A stretch of DNA of 64,000 bases, from NCBI GenBank assembly GCA_041394985.1, contig JAWLBI010000001.1:4292855-4356854 (forward strand), given 5' to 3'. Made by a program: the position numbers and the translations under genes. The notes below the pieces were generated by a model. That model had not been told where the DNA came from. It did no database searches and saw only the letters and a program-made list of their open reading frames with translations. The stretch's first letter is position 1. Every line of letters starts with the position of its first letter. Of this stretch, positions 405-26,542 are shown piece by piece. Origin of the DNA: Candidatus Zixiibacteriota bacterium (GTDB lineage: Bacteria; Zixibacteria; MSB-5A5; GN15; JAAZOE01).

Positions 405-1016
405 ATGACACTGATTCCGATGGTAGTCGAAACAACCGGGCGAGGCGAGCGCGCCTATGATATTTATTCACGGCTTCTCAAGGACCGCATTATCTTCATC
501 GGCACGCCTATCGACGACAACGTCGCCAACCTTGTCATCGCCCAAATGCTGTTTTTGGACGCGGAAGATCCGGGTAAAGATATATTTCTCTATATCAATT
601 CGCCGGGTGGTTCGGTCACGGCCGGTATGGCAATCTATGACACGATGCAGTTCATCAAACCGGATATCGTTACGACCTGTATGGGTATGGCCGCCTCCAT
701 GGGAGCGTTTCTGCTTACCGCCGGTACGGCCGGAAAACGAACCGCGCTGCCGAACTCGCGTATAATGATACACCAGCCGTTAGCCGGTACCCAGGGTCAG
801 GTTTCCGATATCGAAATCATGACCAGAGAGTTTCTGGGAACAAAAAAGCGGTTAAATGACTTGTTAGCTATGCACACCGGTCAACCGCTGTCGCGTATTG
901 AAGAGGACACGGACCGGAATTATTTTATGTCGGCTCATGAGGCGAAAGAGTACGGTATCATAGACAAGGTCTATGAGTTTAAGATAAAGACGAAGGATAA
1001 CAAAGAAGAGAAATAA
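405..1016 (+). CDS. clpP: ATP-dependent Clp protease proteolytic subunit ClpP
   Basis: 203 aa with the ClpP signature (GMAASMG Ser nucleophile, IMIHQP His) and typical length. GGA-rich RBS region upstream. Followed by clpX with a TAATG overlap. Confidence 0.93.
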
Positions 1017-2263
1017 TGCCAGACGATCCGAAAATCCCCGGTCCCTCTGAGCGATGTTCGTTCTGCGGGAAAAAGGCCGAGCAGGTCAAGCGGCTGTATT
1101 CGGGATATAATGCATTTATCTGCAATGACTGCGTCACCCTGTGTCATGACTTGATGAAATCGGAGCCGCAGTTGCCGGACAATCGGGAGGAGTTCGATCT
1201 TCCCGCCCCGTCCGAAATCAAGGCCTTCCTGGATCAATATGTCATCGACCAGGAGGAATCCAAGCGCACCGTTTCGGTGGCGGTGTATAATCATTACAAG
1301 CGGATTCAGGCCAAGCCGACTTCTGATGATGTCGAGCTGGAGAAATCAAACATTCTCCTGCTCGGCCCGACCGGAACCGGCAAGACGCTTTTGGCGCGGA
1401 CGCTGGCCAAATTTCTCAAGGTGCCGTTCACGATTGCCGATGCCACGGTGTTGACCGAGGCGGGCTATGTCGGCGAGGATGTTGAGAATATTCTCGTGCG
1501 GCTCTTTCATGCCGCCAATTATGATGCGCGCAAAACCGAGCGCGGTATTATCTACATTGATGAAATCGACAAGATTTCCCGCACCGATGGTAACCCGTCT
1601 ATCACCCGGGATGTGTCCGGTGAAGGCGTGCAGCAGGCATTGTTGAAGATTTTGGAAGGGACGATTGCGAACATTCCCCCCAAGGGTGGACGCAAGCATC
1701 CGGAACAGGCGTTTGTGGCGATCGATACGTCGAATATCCTGTTTATCTGCGGCGGCGCATTTGAAGGGCTTGAAAAAATCATTGCCCGCCGTGTCGGTAA
1801 AAAGACCGTCGGATTCGAATCCAAGCGGGTCAATGTCGAGGAAGACAAATCGATGTTACTCTCTCAGGTCGAACCGCCGGATCTTCTGGAATACGGCCTG
1901 ATTCCTGAGCTCATCGGCCGACTGCCGGTAGCGACTGCTCTTAAGCCGCTCACCGAGAGTGCCCTGCTGGCGATATTGACCGAACCAAAGAATGCCCTCG
2001 TTAAGCAATATCAGCGACTGTTCGAAATCGACGGCATTAAACTGAGTTTCGAGCCATCGGCATTGCATGCGGCAGTTGCCAAGGCGGTTCGTCGGAAAAC
2101 CGGCGCGCGCTCATTGCGTTCCATCTTCGAATCGACTATGCTTGATGTCATGTATGAGGCGCCGACTATCGCCAACCTCGAGGAAGTCGTCATTAATGAG
2201 CAGGTTATAAATAAAACGGGTAAACCGGAGTATAAGTATAAAAAAGGTAAGAAATCGGCCTGA
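1016..2263 (+). CDS. clpX: ATP-dependent Clp protease ATP-binding subunit ClpX
   Basis: N-terminal C4 zinc-binding module (CSFCGK...CNDCV). Walker A GPTGTGKT and AAA+ sensor regions. 415 aa. Start overlaps the clpP stop (TAATG). Confidence 0.93.
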
Positions 2264-2291
2264 TCGACGATAAAATTTCTCCGAATTTCAA

Positions 2292-2324
2292 GGCGGGATT
2301 TGGTTTAATCCCGCCTTTTTATTT
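2292..2324 (+). terminator. rho-independent terminator after clpX
   Basis: Stem GGCGGGATT...AATCCCGCC followed by a TTTTTATTT tract. Confidence 0.7.
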
Positions 2325-2457
2325 CATATCAGTTCAAAAATCAAACAGGAATCATCAATAATAATAAAATATTGTTTACATTCTCCAGTTTAAGAGAATT
2401 AGACCGATACATGTACCAACAACCGAGATAAACAACTATAGAAACTGGGGGAAATTC

Positions 2458-3537
2458 ATGAACCGAGTAGTTTTGACAATCTCTTTATTTGTATTATCCG
2501 CTTTTGTTTTATTTTTTGTCGGCTGTAGCGATGACGACAGCAATCCGACGACACCGGGAACCGGTGGGACGACTGCCGATACTCTGGAGGCCAGTCTGGT
2601 AGATGTTACTGATGTCATTCGTGCGGCTGCTCCGCCTATTTTCACCGCACCGACGGCGGCGCCTGCCATCGACTCATTCCAGGTCTGGACGGAAGGCGAA
2701 TATCCGCTTCTGGAAAAGGTTTTCGGTGAGGATGATCCGCAGACACTGCACCGTAATGTCAGTGATTTTGAAATGTTCATGGACATCCTTGCAAGTTGTC
2801 TTTATGTCGATGAGAACGGCGATATTATCGAAGGCACGTTCGTTGACTCCTCCACCGAGGATATCGGCGGCCAGATGATGACTATGCATGTCACCGGATC
2901 CGTCTCCGCGCTGGAAAGCGCCACGGCCATCCCGACAGCATATCAGTCCATTTTCGGCGCTTCCATTGATTTGGACTATCTTGTACAGATTACCGTCGAG
3001 GAAATCGAAGGCGGCCTTCTTCAGTTCGGCGTGAAACTGTCCGATACCGAACAGAATCTCCTCGTCTTCCAGCAGAATATGAGCGGCGATCCGGAATCCA
3101 CCGAAGCATCGCTCGTTTATTCGACGCTGACGCTTGCCGATTCATCCTTCGAATTTTCCGGCATTATGCACAGTGAGGATTCACAGGGCGAATTCGATGT
3201 CACGTACATCATGACGGCTGATGCATCGAATGATTTCAGCTACCGCATGAGCTGGTTCTCCGATGATATCCCGGCGCCTGATTATACTCTCCTGGGCTGC
3301 ATCATCGGCGGCGGTAACAAAGATACCGAGTTCGCGCTGAAGTATCGCCAGTACACTCCGGCCGACGCAGCGAGTATCGATTCCGAATGGAGCTTCGATG
3401 AAGTCTTCGGGCCGAATTATACCAACGGCACAGGTCTGATTACCGACTATTCCGATTTCGTAAACGAAGAACTCATCATCGGTTATGCCTCGGTGCCGAC
3501 GACGGCGATCACCAGTCCGTGGGCGGTTGTTCGTTAA
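2458..3537 (+). CDS. hypothetical lipoprotein (signal peptide plus lipobox FVGC)
   Basis: The N-terminus MNRVVLTISLFVLSAFVLFFVGCSDDDS has a lipoprotein signal and lipobox. Acidic, Thr/Ser-rich mature part with no recognisable catalytic motif. A terminator follows. Confidence 0.55.
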   Translation: MNRVVLTISLFVLSAFVLFFVGCSDDDSNPTTPGTGGTTADTLEASLVDVTDVIRAAAPPIFTAPTAAPAIDSFQVWTEGEYPLLEKVFGEDDPQTLHRNVSDFEMFMDILASCLYVDENGDIIEGTFVDSSTEDIGGQMMTMHVTGSVSALESATAIPTAYQSIFGASIDLDYLVQITVEEIEGGLLQFGVKLSDTEQNLLVFQQNMSGDPESTEASLVYSTLTLADSSFEFSGIMHSEDSQGEFDVTYIMTADASNDFSYRMSWFSDDIPAPDYTLLGCIIGGGNKDTEFALKYRQYTPADAASIDSEWSFDEVFGPNYTNGTGLITDYSDFVNEELIIGYASVPTTAITSPWAVVR

Positions 3538-3576
3538 AAGACAATAGCTTTAGCAGGACTGTATAGATTTACACGA

Positions 3577-3606
3577 GAAGGCCTCCGGATACGGAGGCCT
3601 TTTTTA
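3577..3606 (+). terminator. rho-independent terminator
   Basis: Stem GAAGGCCTCCG...CGGAGGCCT followed by TTTTTT. Confidence 0.7.
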
Positions 3607-3666
3607 ATTCTCCCATTCCCTTTTTGCCCCCGCCTGCTCTTGACATCACGGCGATAAAACATAACA

Positions 3667-4455
3667 TTGTCGGCAATGAAGCTGACGACCGACAAAGCGG
3701 GCCTGTATCGGCATTTCCAAAAGAATCCTGTGCTCTATTCGTATCTCATCGGCGATCTGGATGATTTTTACTTTCCACTCTGCACCTGGCCGGTAATTGA
3801 GAATGAAGAGGGCGATATTGAAGACGCCGTTTTATTGTATAACAATCCGCGCTTCGTATGTGTGCAGGCGTTCGGCCAAACGGATCGATTCGAACAGCTT
3901 CTAACTGAAACTCTCCCCCATCTTCCGGATAGATTCTATTGTCATTATCTAAAACCATATCGAGACCTGTTCCGGCAATCATTCGAAGAGAAGCCACTCA
4001 GCACGCATATAAAAATGAAGCTGAAAAACTTTACGCCGCATCATAGCGAAGATGAAAACCTTCGACGATTGTCGATGGATGATTTCGATGCCATAATCGA
4101 TTTATACGAGGCAGCCTATCCTGACAGGTATTTCGACGAGCGCCTGCTTGCCACGGGAAAGTTTTTCGGTATTTCTGCGGGCCCGGCCATCATCGCTGTC
4201 GCCGGTGTACATGTCTATTCGAAGGAATACGATATTGCGGTCCTTGGAAGTATTGCGACGCATCCCGATTATCGCGGTCGCGGTCTGGCGACACGAGTGA
4301 CTTCGCGGTTGATTCAGGAATTGCAGCAATCGGTCGGGCTGATAGCGCTCAATGTCCAGCACCATAATGTCCCGGCAATCCGCTGTTATGAGAAATTGGG
4401 ATTTATTAAGCACTGTGAATATGAGGAGGCGCTGTTCGAGCGTCGGATACCATAA
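3667..4455 (+). CDS. GNAT family N-acetyltransferase
   Basis: C-terminal acetyl-CoA binding motif (R-G-R-G-L-A...CYEKLGF). 262 aa; the exact start is uncertain. Confidence 0.6.
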   Translation: MSAMKLTTDKAGLYRHFQKNPVLYSYLIGDLDDFYFPLCTWPVIENEEGDIEDAVLLYNNPRFVCVQAFGQTDRFEQLLTETLPHLPDRFYCHYLKPYRDLFRQSFEEKPLSTHIKMKLKNFTPHHSEDENLRRLSMDDFDAIIDLYEAAYPDRYFDERLLATGKFFGISAGPAIIAVAGVHVYSKEYDIAVLGSIATHPDYRGRGLATRVTSRLIQELQQSVGLIALNVQHHNVPAIRCYEKLGFIKHCEYEEALFERRIP

Positions 4456-4478
4456 ATTAGTCCGTAAGGAGTCATCAG

Positions 4479-4868
4479 ATGGCTGAAGGTACATTCGCCA
4501 CCGCGATTAATTGCATGGACGGCCGTGTCCAATTACCAATTATTGAGTGGATGAAAAATCGATTTCATGTCGACTACATCGACACCATTACTGAGCCGGG
4601 ACCGGATAAGATACTGGCGGAATGCCAGACCCCGCTCGTCGAATCCATTAAGAATCGTGTGAAAATTTCTGTAGAAAAGCACGGTTCGAAAGTTGTTGTC
4701 ATTACGGGCCACGCCGATTGCGCAGGAAATCCGGTTTCCAAAGAAAAACATATTGAACATGTGAAAAAGGCGATGAAGGAAATCGCCGGCTGGAAGCTGC
4801 CGGTTTCTATCTGCGGCGTCTGGATGGATACCGACTGGAAGCCGGAAATTATCGATATCATCGAATAG
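4479..4868 (+). CDS. small hypothetical protein with beta-carbonic-anhydrase-like Cys/His motifs (C-x-D-x-R ... H-x-D-C-x-G)
   Basis: 129 aa ORF with a good RBS (AAGGAG). Contains NCMDGR and ITGHADCAGN, which mimic the beta-CA zinc-ligand motifs. It is far shorter than canonical beta-CA (about 200 aa). Confidence 0.35.
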   Translation: MAEGTFATAINCMDGRVQLPIIEWMKNRFHVDYIDTITEPGPDKILAECQTPLVESIKNRVKISVEKHGSKVVVITGHADCAGNPVSKEKHIEHVKKAMKEIAGWKLPVSICGVWMDTDWKPEIIDIIE

Positions 4869-4870
4869 CG

Positions 4871-5734
4871 TCAGCGGACTTTGCAGACGACAACCCGATC
4901 GATATCGGCCAGGTCCTTTAACAGCGAACAGCGCACATAGCGGTCATCCGACTCGACGCGCTCGAATATCAAATCGGCCTGATCGTACCCGATCTCGAAT
5001 GCAAGGGTGCCGGATGGGTTCAGATAATCGGGCGCCTGTTTCAACAGCCGATCAATAATTTCCATCCCTTGTTTGCCGCCAAGCAGCGACAGTGTCGGGT
5101 CGGCCTTGACCTCGGGCGGCAGCGTATCGTAGTCATCGGAATTGATGTACGGCGGATTCGAGGCGATAATATCGAATGTCATACCAGCATCAATGTTTTC
5201 GAATAAATCAGACTCCACCCAGCGAATCTTTTCAAGAACACCAAACCGCCCGGCATTTTTCTGCGCCACGGCCAGGGCATCGGGCGAAATATCCGATGCC
5301 GTCACATCGAGGTCGGGGTTCTCCAATTTACTGGAAACCGAAACAACTCCCGAGCCGGTACCGATATCCAGCAGGCGCACCGGATTGGAGTTGCTAAGCC
5401 GAGCCGAGCGCAGAACGGATTCTAAAAGTAATTCCGTCTCCGGACACGGCACCATGACACTTTCATTGACAACGAATTTACGACCGTAGAAATAAGCCGA
5501 ACCGAGAATATATTGCAGCGGATATCGAGTGAGGCGTTTTTCGACAATCTGATTGAAGCGGTCGATAATCTCGGGCGTTATCATTGTGTGACCGTCGAGA
5601 TAGAGTTTCAGCCGCTCACAATCGAGCAGTTCGCACAGGATGATTTCGGCCTCTGCCTTACCGGCATCGATTCCTGCGGCGAGGAGCTTTTTCTCGGCCT
5701 CGGTGATGAGCTCATTGATGTTCGTATCCGGCAA
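4871..5734 (-). CDS. prmC: release factor glutamine N5-methyltransferase PrmC (HemK)
   Basis: NPPY motif (IIASNPPYI) and SAM-binding DIGTGSG. 287 aa. Lies at the downstream end of the prfA operon. Confidence 0.88.
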   Translation of the reverse strand: MPDTNINELITEAEKKLLAAGIDAGKAEAEIILCELLDCERLKLYLDGHTMITPEIIDRFNQIVEKRLTRYPLQYILGSAYFYGRKFVVNESVMVPCPETELLLESVLRSARLSNSNPVRLLDIGTGSGVVSVSSKLENPDLDVTASDISPDALAVAQKNAGRFGVLEKIRWVESDLFENIDAGMTFDIIASNPPYINSDDYDTLPPEVKADPTLSLLGGKQGMEIIDRLLKQAPDYLNPSGTLAFEIGYDQADLIFERVESDDRYVRCSLLKDLADIDRVVVCKVR

Positions 5735-5977
5735 TTAAAACTCCTCGGGAAGAACGGCGCCGCCTCCGGCCCAGATATCGGTTATTTCGGGTCGGAAGGC
5801 GCACCCGGATTTGGCATGGCCATGAAAGCGATACAGGGGCACTTCCTTGGGCATTCGATTATCAATCGGTTCGATTGCCAGAACACTGTCGACGCCAGTC
5901 AGGGTAATAGTCGCCCCAGCCGCCAGTATCGCGGATAATATCATAAATTCGCGGCGGTCTAACATGAGCCCTCCCAT
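5735..5977 (-). CDS. small ORF (80 aa) with a twin-arginine-type signal peptide; function unknown
   Basis: The translation carries DRREFMILSAILAAGATITL...VLA, a Tat-like S/T-R-R-x-F-L motif with an h-region and an AxA-like cleavage site. The ORF exactly fills the pmbA-prmC gap. Its stop abuts the prmC ATG and its start overlaps the pmbA 3' end. Confidence 0.4.
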   Translation of the reverse strand: MGGLMLDRREFMILSAILAAGATITLTGVDSVLAIEPIDNRMPKEVPLYRFHGHAKSGCAFRPEITDIWAGGGAVLPEEF

Positions 5978-7320
5978 TCTTCCTTCGTTTCCTGCACCAG
6001 GTTGAAATTGTTGATCTTCATCGCCGGAACATACATGAGCGACGCATACTGCGGATACACGATGCGATCTTTCGACATCATCTCGACATTGGAGAACGCC
6101 TCAAGGATTGACTGATTCGTGCGCATGTTTTTGATTGCCGGGCCGATTTGACCGTTTTCAATCAGGAAGGTGCCATCGAACGTCGTGCCGGTGATCATCG
6201 TGCGCATCGGATTGAGATAGTTGATGTACCAGAAATGCGAAATCAAAACGCCTTTTTCCGTCGATGCGATCATTTCATCGAATGTCTTGTCGCCGGGCTG
6301 CATGACGAGGTTTTTCGGATATGGTCCAAAACCGTTATTCGGCTGGACCGAATGGCCCGTCGGAGCCGTACCCATCATTGCGGCATAATAGCTGTCGAAG
6401 GCCCCCTCGCCTGCCTTACCATTCTGAATCGGAACGATACGTTTTTTGGAAACGCCTTCGTAGTCGAATAACAATGATCCGAAGATCGGGTTTTCCGCTT
6501 CGTCCGATATTGTGATGTTTTCGCCCGTGATAATTTCGCCGGTTTTGTTCGACAAGAATGACCGTTGCTGAGCCAGCGTGCGGCCGCCGAATCCGAGGAA
6601 ACTGAGAAACAGCAATAACTGTCCGACTGCCGCCGGTTCCAGAATCACGGTATACTGCCCGTCGGGCAGTACAATGGGATTGATATTTTTTTCTGCCTTC
6701 GAAATGGCGGCCTCGGCGGCTCGTTTGTAGTCGATGCTCGCAGGATCGGGACTGAATGCGATACCGAATCCGGATTGTTCACCCTCGCCGACTATTGTCA
6801 GTGATAATTCTGCCTTCCCATTTCGCCCGAACTGTTCGACACCGAGCGAGTTCGCTATCGCGACCGTATTGATATCATGCCGAAAGGCTCCGGATGCGGC
6901 CAGATTCTTCGCCTTGGTCATCTTCACCACAGCCTCAACCGTGCCCGCCATATCATTCGGGGTGAAATTGAGATTCGTCTCGACAGTCGCGGTTTTATCC
7001 AGCTTCGGAGCCATAGTCGTATCGGGAAATGACTGAAAGCGCGCATCGGGTTTTTGCAGTTTGCTGATTTGATTGGCCTTCGCCACCGCTTCCGCTATTC
7101 CGTCATCGGATAAATCGTTAGTTGTCGCAATACCGACCTTTTGTTCATTGACTGCCGTGATAACCAGTGTCGTTTCCTCTTGTGAGATATTCTGTGTAAT
7201 TGTCGATTCGGCGAAACGCGTCAGGTCGGTTTTCTCACCCATCAGTACGACTTCGGTCTGATCGGCGGATGATTGCTTTAGGGCCTTATGCAAAACTTCC
7301 ATTGCTTTCGATTCGGTCAT
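5959..7320 (-). CDS. pmbA: TldE/PmbA family metallopeptidase
   Basis: 453 aa. TldD/PmbA fold signatures (C-terminal GxC region). Start overlaps the tldD stop (TAATG). The TldD/TldE pairing is characteristic. Confidence 0.75.
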   Translation of the reverse strand: MTESKAMEVLHKALKQSSADQTEVVLMGEKTDLTRFAESTITQNISQEETTLVITAVNEQKVGIATTNDLSDDGIAEAVAKANQISKLQKPDARFQSFPDTTMAPKLDKTATVETNLNFTPNDMAGTVEAVVKMTKAKNLAASGAFRHDINTVAIANSLGVEQFGRNGKAELSLTIVGEGEQSGFGIAFSPDPASIDYKRAAEAAISKAEKNINPIVLPDGQYTVILEPAAVGQLLLFLSFLGFGGRTLAQQRSFLSNKTGEIITGENITISDEAENPIFGSLLFDYEGVSKKRIVPIQNGKAGEGAFDSYYAAMMGTAPTGHSVQPNNGFGPYPKNLVMQPGDKTFDEMIASTEKGVLISHFWYINYLNPMRTMITGTTFDGTFLIENGQIGPAIKNMRTNQSILEAFSNVEMMSKDRIVYPQYASLMYVPAMKINNFNLVQETKEEWEGSC

Positions 7321-8765
7321 TATGCCTGCCCTCCTACCTGAATATCGACGAAGCGGGTCGGCGATGCGCCTTCACCCGTCCGCGCATTCTGTCCCGGTTG
7401 CCCCTTGCCGCAGTTTGGTGTTCCCTGAATCACGAACTGCGAGGCATCACCGATGGCATTGCAATTGTTCCAGAACTGTGTCGTGCAGCCGGAAAAGGTC
7501 GGATTCTTGATGGCGCTGCCGATTTTGCCACCCTTGATTTCCCAGCCGATTTCGCATCCGAATTGGAAGTTTTTGCGCAGGTCATCGATCGACCAGGAAG
7601 TCGGACCGCTCATGAAGATGCCGTCGTCGACTTCGCCGATCAAATCGGCGAATGATTTATCTCCCGGTTGAAGTAGCGTATTCGACATGCGGATAATCGG
7701 GATGTTCTTCCACCCCTCGGCTCTCAGATTGGCCGTCGAGGTGCGGTTGACTCTCCCCGCCAGTTCGCGCGAGGACAAATAGTTTTTCAATCTGCCGTTT
7801 TCAATCAACAGTGTACAGCCTGCGGCGACGCCCTCGTCGTCCCAGCCATAGGAACCGAGCGCGTGCTTGGCGGTTGCATCCACCGCGAAATTGACGATGT
7901 CGGAGCCGTACTGCAGACTATCCAGATTCTCCGGTGTCGCGAAAGACATGCCGGAAAAGTTTCGCTCCATCCCGAAGACGCGGTCGAGTTCCAGCGCATG
8001 CCCGACGGATTCATGAATGACCAGCGAGGTAATATTGCCGTCGAGCACGAGTGTCGTCGTTTTGGCGGGACAGTCGATGGCTGTCTCCAGTTGCTTGATG
8101 TCCTCGACCAATCTGGGTATCTGCGCCTTGAAATCCAATTCTTTCAGTAGTTCATATCCCTTTAGTTCATATTGCCCGGCCGGTTTCGGATAGCTGCGCT
8201 CGTATCGCTCGCGTCGGGAAACCGATTTGCCCATGCTGATTCCTGCGCCGGATTGAATCAGGATTTGATGCAGTTCGCTGCCCTCGGATGAAAAGAAATA
8301 CTTGTCGTATTTACGAAACGATGCGAAACAGCTCCGGGAATTGATTCCCTCGTGTGCACCCATGGCCGCATCGAGGTCGGCGAGGAAGGCGATTTTGTCT
8401 TCCAGCGGTACGGTGAATGGATCTGTTTGATACGGCGAGATAAATTCGCCAACCTGTATCTGGGCCGGAGTCAGTTTTACGCGTTCTGCCATCACTTTTC
8501 CGGAGGCTTTGGCGACAGCCGCGGCCATATCGGTGAGAGCCTTGATCGACAGGGTGGGATCATCGGATGATGCGAATCCCCAGGCGCCGTCAATAAGCAA
8601 ACGGACGGCCCAGCCGGCCGAAACCGAAGTTTCAATAGGTTCCGGTTCGCCGTCGGAATAGGCCAGGTTTTCGTCGCGGATGACTTCATAGCGGATATCG
8701 CAATAGGACGCCTTGTGCGCCGATGCGGCCACGAGTCCATCCATGGCGATAGATTTAATATCCAT
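7320..8765 (-). CDS. tldD: TldD family metallopeptidase
   Basis: 481 aa with the HExxxH zinc motif (HESVGHALE) typical of TldD. Immediately upstream of pmbA. Confidence 0.8.
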   Translation of the reverse strand: MDIKSIAMDGLVAASAHKASYCDIRYEVIRDENLAYSDGEPEPIETSVSAGWAVRLLIDGAWGFASSDDPTLSIKALTDMAAAVAKASGKVMAERVKLTPAQIQVGEFISPYQTDPFTVPLEDKIAFLADLDAAMGAHEGINSRSCFASFRKYDKYFFSSEGSELHQILIQSGAGISMGKSVSRRERYERSYPKPAGQYELKGYELLKELDFKAQIPRLVEDIKQLETAIDCPAKTTTLVLDGNITSLVIHESVGHALELDRVFGMERNFSGMSFATPENLDSLQYGSDIVNFAVDATAKHALGSYGWDDEGVAAGCTLLIENGRLKNYLSSRELAGRVNRTSTANLRAEGWKNIPIIRMSNTLLQPGDKSFADLIGEVDDGIFMSGPTSWSIDDLRKNFQFGCEIGWEIKGGKIGSAIKNPTFSGCTTQFWNNCNAIGDASQFVIQGTPNCGKGQPGQNARTGEGASPTRFVDIQVGGQA

Positions 8766-8851
8766 ATTACCTCGCAGGCGATTGTTATGAACAATAATAC
8801 GATAATGTAGGTAATTTCATGGGAGGAGTCAAAAGCAAATACGCCGAGACT

Positions 8852-9316
8852 TCACTGTTCGATGCGACGGTCGAGCCAGATGACCTCGGTTTGCACGAAA
8901 TCATTGGCGTCGAAAAACTCCTGCGCGCCGATGTTTTTGCGATGCGTGATGCCGTAGATGGCGATATAGCCGTTTTCCTTCGCCCATTCGATCATATACG
9001 CCAGCATCGACCGGCCGATTCCTCGGTTGCGGCAATCGCTCTTGATGTGGATTTCATTGAGCCACAGATACCGTCCGCCGCTTTCCAGTCCAATAGCAGT
9101 ATTGAAAAAGCAAAAGCCGGTAACATCGCTGCACTCCTCATCGACCGAGGCTATGAAATGCGCGCGGGAGTCTTCTTCGAGGACGATATCAATCGTGTGT
9201 TCGACTCTGGATTTGGACGTTTCCGTCCCGAGGACATGCATGTGAGCGAGGACCAGCCGCACCAGCGCCGGTCGGTATGATTCAATATTGTCGCGAGTTA
9301 TTTCGACTATAGCCAT
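8852..9316 (-). CDS. GNAT family N-acetyltransferase
   Basis: 154 aa. Acetyl-CoA binding motif NRGIGRSML. Sits 8 bp downstream of prfA in the same orientation. Confidence 0.65.
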   Translation of the reverse strand: MAIVEITRDNIESYRPALVRLVLAHMHVLGTETSKSRVEHTIDIVLEEDSRAHFIASVDEECSDVTGFCFFNTAIGLESGGRYLWLNEIHIKSDCRNRGIGRSMLAYMIEWAKENGYIAIYGITHRKNIGAQEFFDANDFVQTEVIWLDRRIEQ

Positions 9317-25984: not shown

Positions 25985-26542
25985 CTAGCTTAAGTGACCG
26001 CTGATAAGCTTGGTCATCTCGAACATATTGACTTTTTTCTTCTTGCCGAAGACTGCGAGCAGTTTATCGTCAGCAATGATTTCCCGTTTGTTTTCCGGGT
26101 TCTGCAATTTGTTCTTCTTGATGTAGTCCCAAACTTTCTTGGTGACTTCAGTCCGAGGAAGCGGCTTTGAACCGACGATGGCGGCAAGCTCGGCAGACGG
26201 CGTCATCGGTTTCATGAAGGCCGCATTCGGTTTGCGCTTTGTCGCTGTTTTTTTTGTCGTCTTCTTCATAGTTTTTTTTGGTGCTTTCTTAGCTACTTTC
26301 TTAGTGGTTTTCTTGGCGGCCGGTTTCTTGGCCACTTTCTTCTTCGGAGCGGCTTTCTTCTTGGCGGCCGGTTTCTTCTTCGGAGCTGCCTTCTTCGCCG
26401 TTGTCTTCTTCGTCACTTTCTTCTTCGTTGTTACTTTCTTCGTCACTTTCTTTTTAGTGGTTGCTTTCTTGGCGGCGGGTTTCTTGGCTGCCGGTTTCTT
26501 AGCCGTTTTCTTGGCGGCGGGTTTCTTCTTTGCAGTTGCCAT
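25985..26542 (-). CDS. histone H1-like Lys/Ala/Pro-rich protein fused to a SWIB/MDM2 domain
   Basis: The first ~105 aa are AKK/PAAKK repeats. The C-terminal ~80 aa match the SWIB consensus (ELAAIVG...TEVTKKVWDYIKKNKLQNP.NKREI..DDKL..VFG...MFEM.KLIS.HL). Strong RBS AAGGAG. Confidence 0.75.
   Translation of the reverse strand: MATAKKKPAAKKTAKKPAAKKPAAKKATTKKKVTKKVTTKKKVTKKTTAKKAAPKKKPAAKKKAAPKKKVAKKPAAKKTTKKVAKKAPKKTMKKTTKKTATKRKPNAAFMKPMTPSAELAAIVGSKPLPRTEVTKKVWDYIKKNKLQNPENKREIIADDKLLAVFGKKKKVNMFEMTKLISGHLS

Follow-up and report, generated by a model that had tools for sequence, protein, structure and literature searches.

A conserved small gene for a peptide with a predicted Tat signal in the tldD-pmbA-prmC cluster of Zixibacteria

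A small gene between pmbA and prmC

The window analysed here is a 64,000-nucleotide (nt) stretch of contig JAWLBI010000001.1 (positions 4,292,855 to 4,356,854) from a Candidatus Zixiibacteriota bacterium. Our subject is a small gene that lies on its minus strand between pmbA and prmC and encodes a peptide with a predicted twin-arginine translocation (Tat) signal. The open reading frame (ORF) runs from ATG to TAA over 80 codons (5735..5977, minus strand), as proposed in a sequence-only reading of the window that left the strand unstated. The conserved start, however, is a second in-frame ATG at 5965, which gives a 76-residue product (MLDRREF...). Since the homologues begin at this position, with M-L-x-R-R in common, and since the NCBI gene call also has 76 residues, we take 5965 as the start of the gene on grounds of family conservation (5735..5965, minus strand, 76 codons plus TAA); with the in-frame ATG further upstream, at 5977, the product would be the 80-residue version. 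A Shine-Dalgarno-like GGAGGG, read from the sequence (5969..5974, minus strand), is positioned 3-4 nt before ATG 5965, within the C-terminal codons of pmbA.

The gene is packed tightly against both neighbours. Its start overlaps the 3′ end of pmbA by 7 nt (ATGTTAG, with the pmbA TAG at 5961..5959), and its TAA (5737..5735) is directly next to the TTG start of prmC at 5734. The earlier description of an ORF that bridges the pmbA-prmC gap is thus borne out, and the tight packing is consistent with the translational coupling suggested alongside it. The accompanying argument that such exact gap-filling speaks against chance is weak by itself. ORFs of this size are common locally, with 58 ORFs of at least 40 residues in 7 kb, so the evidence for a real gene is its conservation, not the presence of an ORF or its fit to the gap.

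A first search returned eight homologues with 50-75% identity. A profile search of 1.84 billion representatives added ~17 further proteins of 69-77 residues, and a profile search of a 5.8-billion set gave 115 clusters, all source-named ones being from Zixibacteria. Overall, there are ~190 distinct homologues, with 85 distinct copies within the fetched loci. All 92 related loci that extend to this position keep the frame open and share the architecture, down to a PmbA identity of 43%. Conservation at the tldD-pmbA-prmC junction in relatives and coding-like codon statistics had been singled out in the sequence-only reading as the points on which the case would turn. The former is found in every locus reaching the position; as to the latter, GC content by codon position is coding-like in the small ORF, and the remaining five frames are broken by stops.

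Selection on the peptide was assessed by Nei-Gojobori counts of nonsynonymous (pN) and synonymous (pS) differences, with the window copy compared against two orthologues. In the core (residues 44-76), pN is 0.06-0.08 and pS is 0.61-0.73, a pN/pS of ~0.1, while pN is 0.17-0.32 in the signal region and 0.54-0.69 in a 13-residue linker, where it is near pS and the sequence is essentially neutral. A spurious ORF that fills the gap by chance could draw on the frequency of such mechanical ORFs in the region and on the fact that no Pfam or NCBIfam family covers the peptide. Retention of the frame and architecture at deep divergence, purifying selection on the core, and the number of distinct homologues already refute this explanation, and we give it practically no credence. 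The comparative sequence data identify the small ORF as a genuine, strongly conserved gene. Its product represents an undescribed family whose named members are all Zixibacteria and whose source annotations are ‘hypothetical protein’ or merely ‘twin-arginine translocation signal domain-containing protein’.

Directly upstream of the small gene lie the genes for a TldD/PmbA (TldD/TldE, or TldD/E) pair. The pmbA/tldE-like gene (5959..7320, minus strand) encodes 453 residues with the first, second and third Pfam PmbA_TldD domains and no signal peptide. The gene for the TldD-like catalytic subunit (7320..8765, minus strand) encodes 481 residues, likewise with three Pfam PmbA_TldD domains, and ends in a stop codon that shares 1 nt with the start of pmbA. 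PmbA scores 44.2 bits against the NCBIfam PmbA equivalog (cutoff 438), and TldD scores 87.6 bits against NF008006 (cutoff 513) and 148.6 bits against the archaeal equivalog (cutoff 635). By sequence, the pair is a subfamily that has diverged but retains the Pfam PmbA_TldD domains. The HESVGH and NCGKGQ motifs of TldD align with HEAVGH and VCGK of E. coli TldD (5nj5 chain A), in which Cys is the third metal ligand besides HExxxH (PMC5810440). With HExxxH and the Cys metal ligand both kept, the TldD of the window is predicted to be catalytically intact. TldD begins MDIKS... and PmbA begins MTESK..., and neither has an RR motif, an N-terminal extension or a signal peptide. Among the best 120 TldD homologues, all are of ~480 residues and none matches PF10518 (Pfam TAT_signal); the outgroup lies beyond these 120.

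Downstream of the small gene, prmC (4871..5734, minus strand, TTG start) encodes a release-factor glutamine methyltransferase, which scores 249.3 bits against TIGR03534 (cutoff 199.1) and matches PrmC_N PF17827 with an E-value of 7.6e-20. A promoter-like TTGACT-17-TACATT upstream of tldD (8804..8832, minus strand) is, by consensus match only, a possible operon promoter, and no terminator-like site was found on the minus strand from 8765 to 4871, within the four genes. Scans of the DNA found no Rfam matches, tRNAs or relevant tandem repeats. Elsewhere in the window, a Pro_CA_2 gene comes next after prmC in convergent orientation, and a 359-residue ORF with a lipoprotein-like N-terminus (MNRVVLTISLFVLSAFVLFFVGCSDDD) lies at 2458..3537 (plus strand). 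Imperfect, TTCTTC-rich tandem repeats of 15, 18 and 30 nt at 26331..26527 are probably low-complexity coding sequence, unrelated to the small gene.

Gene order among relatives

The order tldD-pmbA-peptide-prmC is shared by all nine contexts reached through the peptide itself, and it usually lies downstream of an rpmE-DUF1385-prfA block. When genomes were scanned with a PmbA alignment, 80 loci were retrieved, with PmbA identities of 43-85% and PrmC identities down to ~30%, in records titled Zixibacteria, ‘uncultured Ignavibacteria’ bins, or FCB group. A family hidden Markov model finds the peptide in 79 of 94 sources. Among the remaining 15, 13 contain a divergent ORF of the same design (for example, MKRRKFIRTLG...YGSPRKGCSTS...), and the last two (L063 and L083) stop at a contig edge, so that the peptide is present in every locus reaching the position. 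Sequence comparison thus indicates that the order tldD-pmbA-small gene-prmC is kept phylum-wide. In L076, PmbA and the peptide merely appear to be fused, because ORFs were defined from stop to stop. TldD looks truncated at the N-terminus in gene calls for L013 (the same as L049) and L026, where runs of N at 4850-4955 and ~3030-3130, respectively, cut tldD in two Zixibacteria records labelled ‘complete chromosome’ (CP070796.1 and CP070766.1), and in L009, which seemed to have no upstream pmbA, the PmbA C-terminus is present on a low-coverage contig.

Of 84 loci, 36 have a spacing of −7 nt from pmbA to the peptide gene, 66 have one within 10 nt, and 10 have one above 300 nt. From the peptide gene to prmC, the spacing is at most 12 nt in 63 of 81 loci and at most 35 nt in 77. 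Each of the 10 large gaps contains an inserted gene, always between pmbA and the peptide gene, never between the peptide gene and prmC. The spacing on the prmC side, the one-sided insertions, and the weak TTG start that immediately follows the TAA in the window would all fit a primary link to prmC, in which the small gene is an upstream ORF that delivers ribosomes for coupling or regulation, or its product is a partner or substrate of the methyltransferase. We consider such a link very unlikely. A coupling device needs no protein-level purifying selection, Tat signal or invariant Cys, and the peptide has neither a conserved Gln nor a GGQ-like PrmC target, for which we rejected it as a PrmC substrate. 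Furthermore, a single locus (L084) keeps tldD-pmbA-small gene with prmC absent downstream. The genes prfA and prmC are classically adjacent and their linkage is ancestral; the tight junction can be explained by dependence of prmC on upstream translation.

The inserted genes differ among lineages. In several deep lineages, a GxxExxY-type gene occupies the site between pmbA and the small ORF (L045:5674-6168, L067:5444-5860, L078:5539-5910, L079:5308-5814, L081:5066-5506 and L082:5330-5989). It is flanked by short repeats that translate as ...NPLHPLT... and ...RIKRM..., and resembles a small insertion that is mobile or associated with repeats. In another deep lineage, the same site holds a ~200-residue ORF (L085:5305-5922, L086:4292-4885, L087:5308-5940 and L088:5314-5952) with a signal-like N-terminus and an alternating-hydrophobic pattern resembling that of an outer-membrane beta-barrel, and the small ORF stays next to prmC. 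In L084, a GC-rich contig with the small ORF at 5272-5541, the region downstream to 6660 contains ORFs resembling a glutamine amidotransferase and a 1-aminocyclopropane-1-carboxylate deaminase/D-cysteine desulfhydrase.

The wider surroundings combine a conserved block with variable genes. The tldD-pmbA-small gene unit sits between prfA and prmC, in a conserved rpmE-DUF1385-prfA...prmC block (window 1016..9316; L001, L002, L005 and L094). The genes between prfA and tldD vary, and include a GNAT acetyltransferase gene in the window (8852..9316, minus strand) and a gene for an unannotated protein of 278-282 residues in L005 and L094. A gene for a 325-residue radical S-adenosylmethionine (SAM)/SPASM enzyme lies on the same strand directly after prmC in four distinct loci of close (group-1) relatives (L001:7101-8078, the same as L014:7028-8002; L016:6479-7453; L021:7068-8042; L024:7058-8041) and is absent from the window and most loci. 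The enzyme could modify the Cys peptide in those lineages.

Signal, linker and core of the peptide

Residue conservation was derived from 96 aligned homologues, and motif statistics from 186 unique sequences. The peptide comprises a predicted Tat signal peptide (residues 1-30, MLDRREFMILSAILAAGATITLTGVDSVLA; 5876..5965, minus strand), with the RR codons at 5951..5956 and VLA as the putative signal-peptidase site; a variable linker with no conserved columns (residues 31-43, IEPIDNRMPKEVP; 5837..5875, minus strand); and a conserved mature core (residues 44-76, LYRFHGHAKSGCAFRPEITDIWAGGGAVLPEEF; 5738..5836, minus strand), in which the codon of an invariant Cys, Cys55, is at 5801..5803. In the alignment, R4, R5, F7, G49, G54, C55, A56 and P59 are invariant, and G17, S53 and G68 are each more than 90% conserved.

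The family N-terminus reads x-R-R-x-F-[I/L]-K, with I/L after F in 93% of the sequences and K/R at the next position in 85%. The h-region contains Gly, has a median length of 16 residues, and has a mean Kyte-Doolittle hydropathy of 1.61. In the window, the c-region reads VLA followed by IE, while deep branches have KR, RR or KK right after the h-region and A-x-A-like sites of the ANA type. Tat signals are described as having an S-R-R-x-F-L-K motif, a Gly-rich, moderately hydrophobic h-region, an A-x-A site, and a basic Sec-avoidance residue (PMC7317946); as far as sequence can tell, the N-terminal features of the family match this description. PF10518 matches 14 of 23 family members, with a best E-value of 1.2e-5, and the match is precomputed for three clusters. 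The ‘textbook’ Tat motif of the sequence-only reading is accordingly canonical at the level of the family, but the window copy itself is less so: its DRREFMI retains RR and F and lacks the L-K of S-R-R-x-F-L-K, and it scores 12.3 bits against TIGR01409 (cutoff 16.7). The same reading was right that a mature part of ~46 residues would be unusually small for a Tat substrate.

The core has the consensus [L/F]-H-G-H-x-R-S-G-C-A-x-x-P-E-L. Its Cys is present in 100% of the sequences, in an RSGCA context and with a median distance of 21 residues to the C-terminus; G occupies position −1 in 97% and position −6 in 96%. His48 (52%) and His50 (63%) are frequent but not invariant. A cofactor-binding periplasmic subunit, as had been suggested, would have this one Cys and the frequent HGH as its sole basis, and is not established. 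AlphaFold2, run with the 96-sequence alignment, predicts a confident helix at residues 4-28, with a predicted local distance difference test (pLDDT) score above 90. In the mature part, pLDDT is 57-68 and a short helix at residues 59-66 is the only element, so the mature part is predicted to have no autonomous fold. Pfam and NCBIfam scans found no family for the mature core. Two assignments of the Cys were rejected: the preceding residues are R-S-G, with no lipobox as in a lipoprotein, and Pro is at +4, not at +2 as in a sulfatase-type CxPxR formylglycine site.

The strong Tat signal features, the one invariant Cys and the frequent HGH could point to a peptide that is exported by Tat alone and works in the periplasm or at the membrane, either as a small peptide that depends on a thiol or a metal or as a subunit of something other than TldD/E. 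TldD/E would then stay in the cytoplasm, where it is found in the systems studied (PMC5810440), and would be linked to the peptide only via co-expression or quality control of precursor that was not exported; that no co-evolution signal specific to TldD/E was found agrees with this. We regard export of the peptide alone as doubtful; if true, it would place the peptide among the smallest Tat passengers. It leaves unexplained that the gene is next to pmbA throughout the phylum, in 100% of cases, that the two overlap in their codons, and that the gene stays with pmbA in L084, where prmC is lost. No autonomous fold is predicted for the mature part, and variation at His48 and His50 weakens the reading of the core as a metal site.

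Candidate roles and comparison with known systems

We tentatively favour, at rather less than an even chance, a role for the peptide as a third, stoichiometric subunit of the TldD/E metalloprotease, with a Tat signal through which the heterodimer, already folded, would hitchhike into the periplasm. Specifically, docking of the conserved core to the folded heterodimer, either on its surface or inside it, would take place in the cytoplasm, and may bring the invariant Cys to the TldD metal site or close to it, much as in a cysteine-switch plug. The exposed N-terminal signal would take the folded, metal-loaded complex across the cytoplasmic membrane, and signal peptidase would then cut after VLA, at residue 30. 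Hetero-oligomeric Tat substrates in which one partner bears the signal are known, as are small subunits dedicated to hitchhiker export (PMC10924467, PMC4273604, PMC6719666). For an obligate heterodimer that is loaded with metal and has to be assembled in the cytoplasm, Tat would be a fitting export route.

Several observations argue for a carrier subunit. A partner would be needed because AlphaFold folds the signal helix only; a cargo role fits because TldD and PmbA are signal-less, the TldD metal site is kept, and the genes are co-encoded in all loci; and a link as a subunit is suggested because the peptide follows pmbA in every locus that reaches the position, usually with stop and start codons that overlap, and stays with pmbA in L084. 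The position of prmC would follow through its dependence on operon transcription and translational coupling, not through shared function. Ancestrally paired with prfA, prmC would have come to rely on upstream transcription and termination-reinitiation, which is the simplest account of its tight junction with the small gene, in the window a TTG start with no spacer.

Several points weigh against the peptide being a carrier of TldD/E. TldD/E is cytoplasmic in the characterised cases (PMC5810440), and literature searches found nothing linking TldD/E with Tat. The junction of the small gene with prmC is more constant than that with pmbA, and the inserted genes all separate the peptide from pmbA. 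In a mirror-tree analysis, the peptide showed no preferential co-evolution with TldD or PmbA over PrmC, in a test with no discriminating power (partial r of 0.21-0.33 in all directions, and merely 0.39 for the TldD-PmbA control). The window copy falls below the TIGR01409 cutoff, Pfam finds nothing for it, and a regex scan of the 64-kb window revealed no TatA-like gene; no other Tat motifs were found in that scan. Finally, TldD/E degrades just such targets, unfolded and free at the N-terminus, from that end (PMC5810440), and the 76-residue peptide could therefore be a substrate and not a subunit.

TldD/E degrades unfolded peptides from the N-terminus (PMC5810440), and trims small ones in this direction until it halts ~13 residues before a steric block (PMC10885120, PMC5810440). 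A dedicated substrate, whose N-terminus is trimmed by this ‘pencil sharpener’ to release an active C-terminal peptide, either pro-peptide-like or akin to a ribosomally synthesized, post-translationally modified peptide (RiPP), would agree with this preference, as the peptide is predicted to be unstructured and has a variable linker of ~13 residues before its core. The radical-SAM/SPASM gene after prmC in the four group-1 loci could be a further point in its favour. We nevertheless judge a substrate role unlikely. Recognition by TldD/E is sequence-independent (PMC5810440) and would not need a conserved RR-x-F, h-region and c-region in a leader that is chewed off. No conserved modifying enzyme is encoded nearby, the radical-SAM gene being missing from the window and most loci, and the invariant core and universal vertical inheritance are unlike those of bacteriocin-type precursors. 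The precursor peptide that the sequence-only reading had proposed is not established, and for the reasons given its RiPP-like form is weakened.

A more specific version of the carrier role would have the peptide act as a plug supplied in trans. By analogy with cysteine switches, Cys55 would cap the TldD metal, the linker would thread the substrate channel, Tat would export the silenced heterodimer, and the plug would be released in the periplasm. The substrate channel needs ~15 extended residues (PMC5810440), and the linker has ~13. We rate this version as distinctly unlikely; if true, no smaller Tat carrier would be known, TldD/E would have its first dedicated regulator, and an extracytoplasmic TldD/E would be seen for the first time.

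The known roles of TldD/TldE are opportunistic, namely microcin maturation and CcdA degradation. About 60% of bacterial genomes encode the pair (PMC10885120). Its hard-wiring, throughout an uncultured phylum, to a tiny, invariant peptide bearing a predicted Tat signal may offer a handle on the physiology of a widespread, poorly understood protease. The outcomes in play are TldD/E working outside the cytoplasm, a dedicated inhibitor or escort, and a dedicated substrate. On present evidence the peptide does not represent a new mechanism; it does add a new small-protein family, so far annotated as ‘hypothetical’ or ‘Tat signal domain’.

Among known families, the generic TIGR01409/PF10518 label is shared by some NCBI-annotated members, and describes the first ~30 residues only, not the mature core. 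SoxY is a folded protein of ~110 residues that has a Tat signal, pairs with SoxZ, and carries a C-terminal GGCGG swinging arm. Like SoxY, the peptide has a predicted Tat signal and one invariant Cys with a neighbouring Gly. Unlike in SoxY, this Cys lies ~21 residues from the C-terminus, not at the extreme end, and in an RSGCA context. Pfam and NCBIfam scans detected no similarity to SoxY, and Sox genes are absent from the examined neighbourhoods.

The cysteine-switch pro-peptides of zinc metalloproteases, as in matrix metalloproteinases, carry the motif PRCGxPD. The peptide is reminiscent of them in having a lone invariant Cys beside Gly and a basic residue ([RK]-S-G-C-A) and in its association with an HExxxH protease. 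The peptide, in contrast, would be supplied in trans and has another motif and no homology, and coordination of the metal by Cys55 is pure conjecture.

The ‘pencil sharpener’ systems, in which TldD/TldE acts on McbA (the microcin B17 precursor), klebsazolicin or McC-Yps, likewise combine the heterodimer with a small ribosomal peptide. The long N-terminal part of the peptide is predicted to be unstructured, as in these systems, and the TldD of the window keeps HExxxH and the Cys ligand. In McbA-type systems, however, tldD and tldE are unlinked housekeeping genes, and the peptide requires heterocycle modification (PMC10885120). Here, the peptide gene is within the tldD-tldE operon phylum-wide, the peptide has a predicted Tat signal and not a RiPP leader, and both TldD and PmbA of the window fall far under the NCBIfam equivalog cutoffs. 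There is also no conserved modifying enzyme: RiPP modification enzymes were not found in the conserved neighbourhood, which holds only prfA, tldD, pmbA and prmC. The universal presence of the gene in the clade and its invariant core are unlike the distribution and core of bacteriocin-type RiPPs.

Known Tat hitchhiker carriers are folded, have ~150-370 residues, and are attached to redox enzymes. Like the peptide, hitchhiker subunits share an operon with catalytic subunits that have no signal, and bear the sole twin-arginine signal (PMC6719666, PMC4273604, PMC10924467). They serve to translocate a complex that is already folded and loaded with cofactor or metal, and by analogy the peptide may do the same. 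The peptide differs from these carriers in having a mature part of ~46 residues, no predicted fold, and a protease as its presumed cargo, and no sequence similarity to them was found. By analogy, then, the peptide is in kind most like a Tat hitchhiker carrier, but one that would be ~3 times smaller, unfolded, and attached to a protease.

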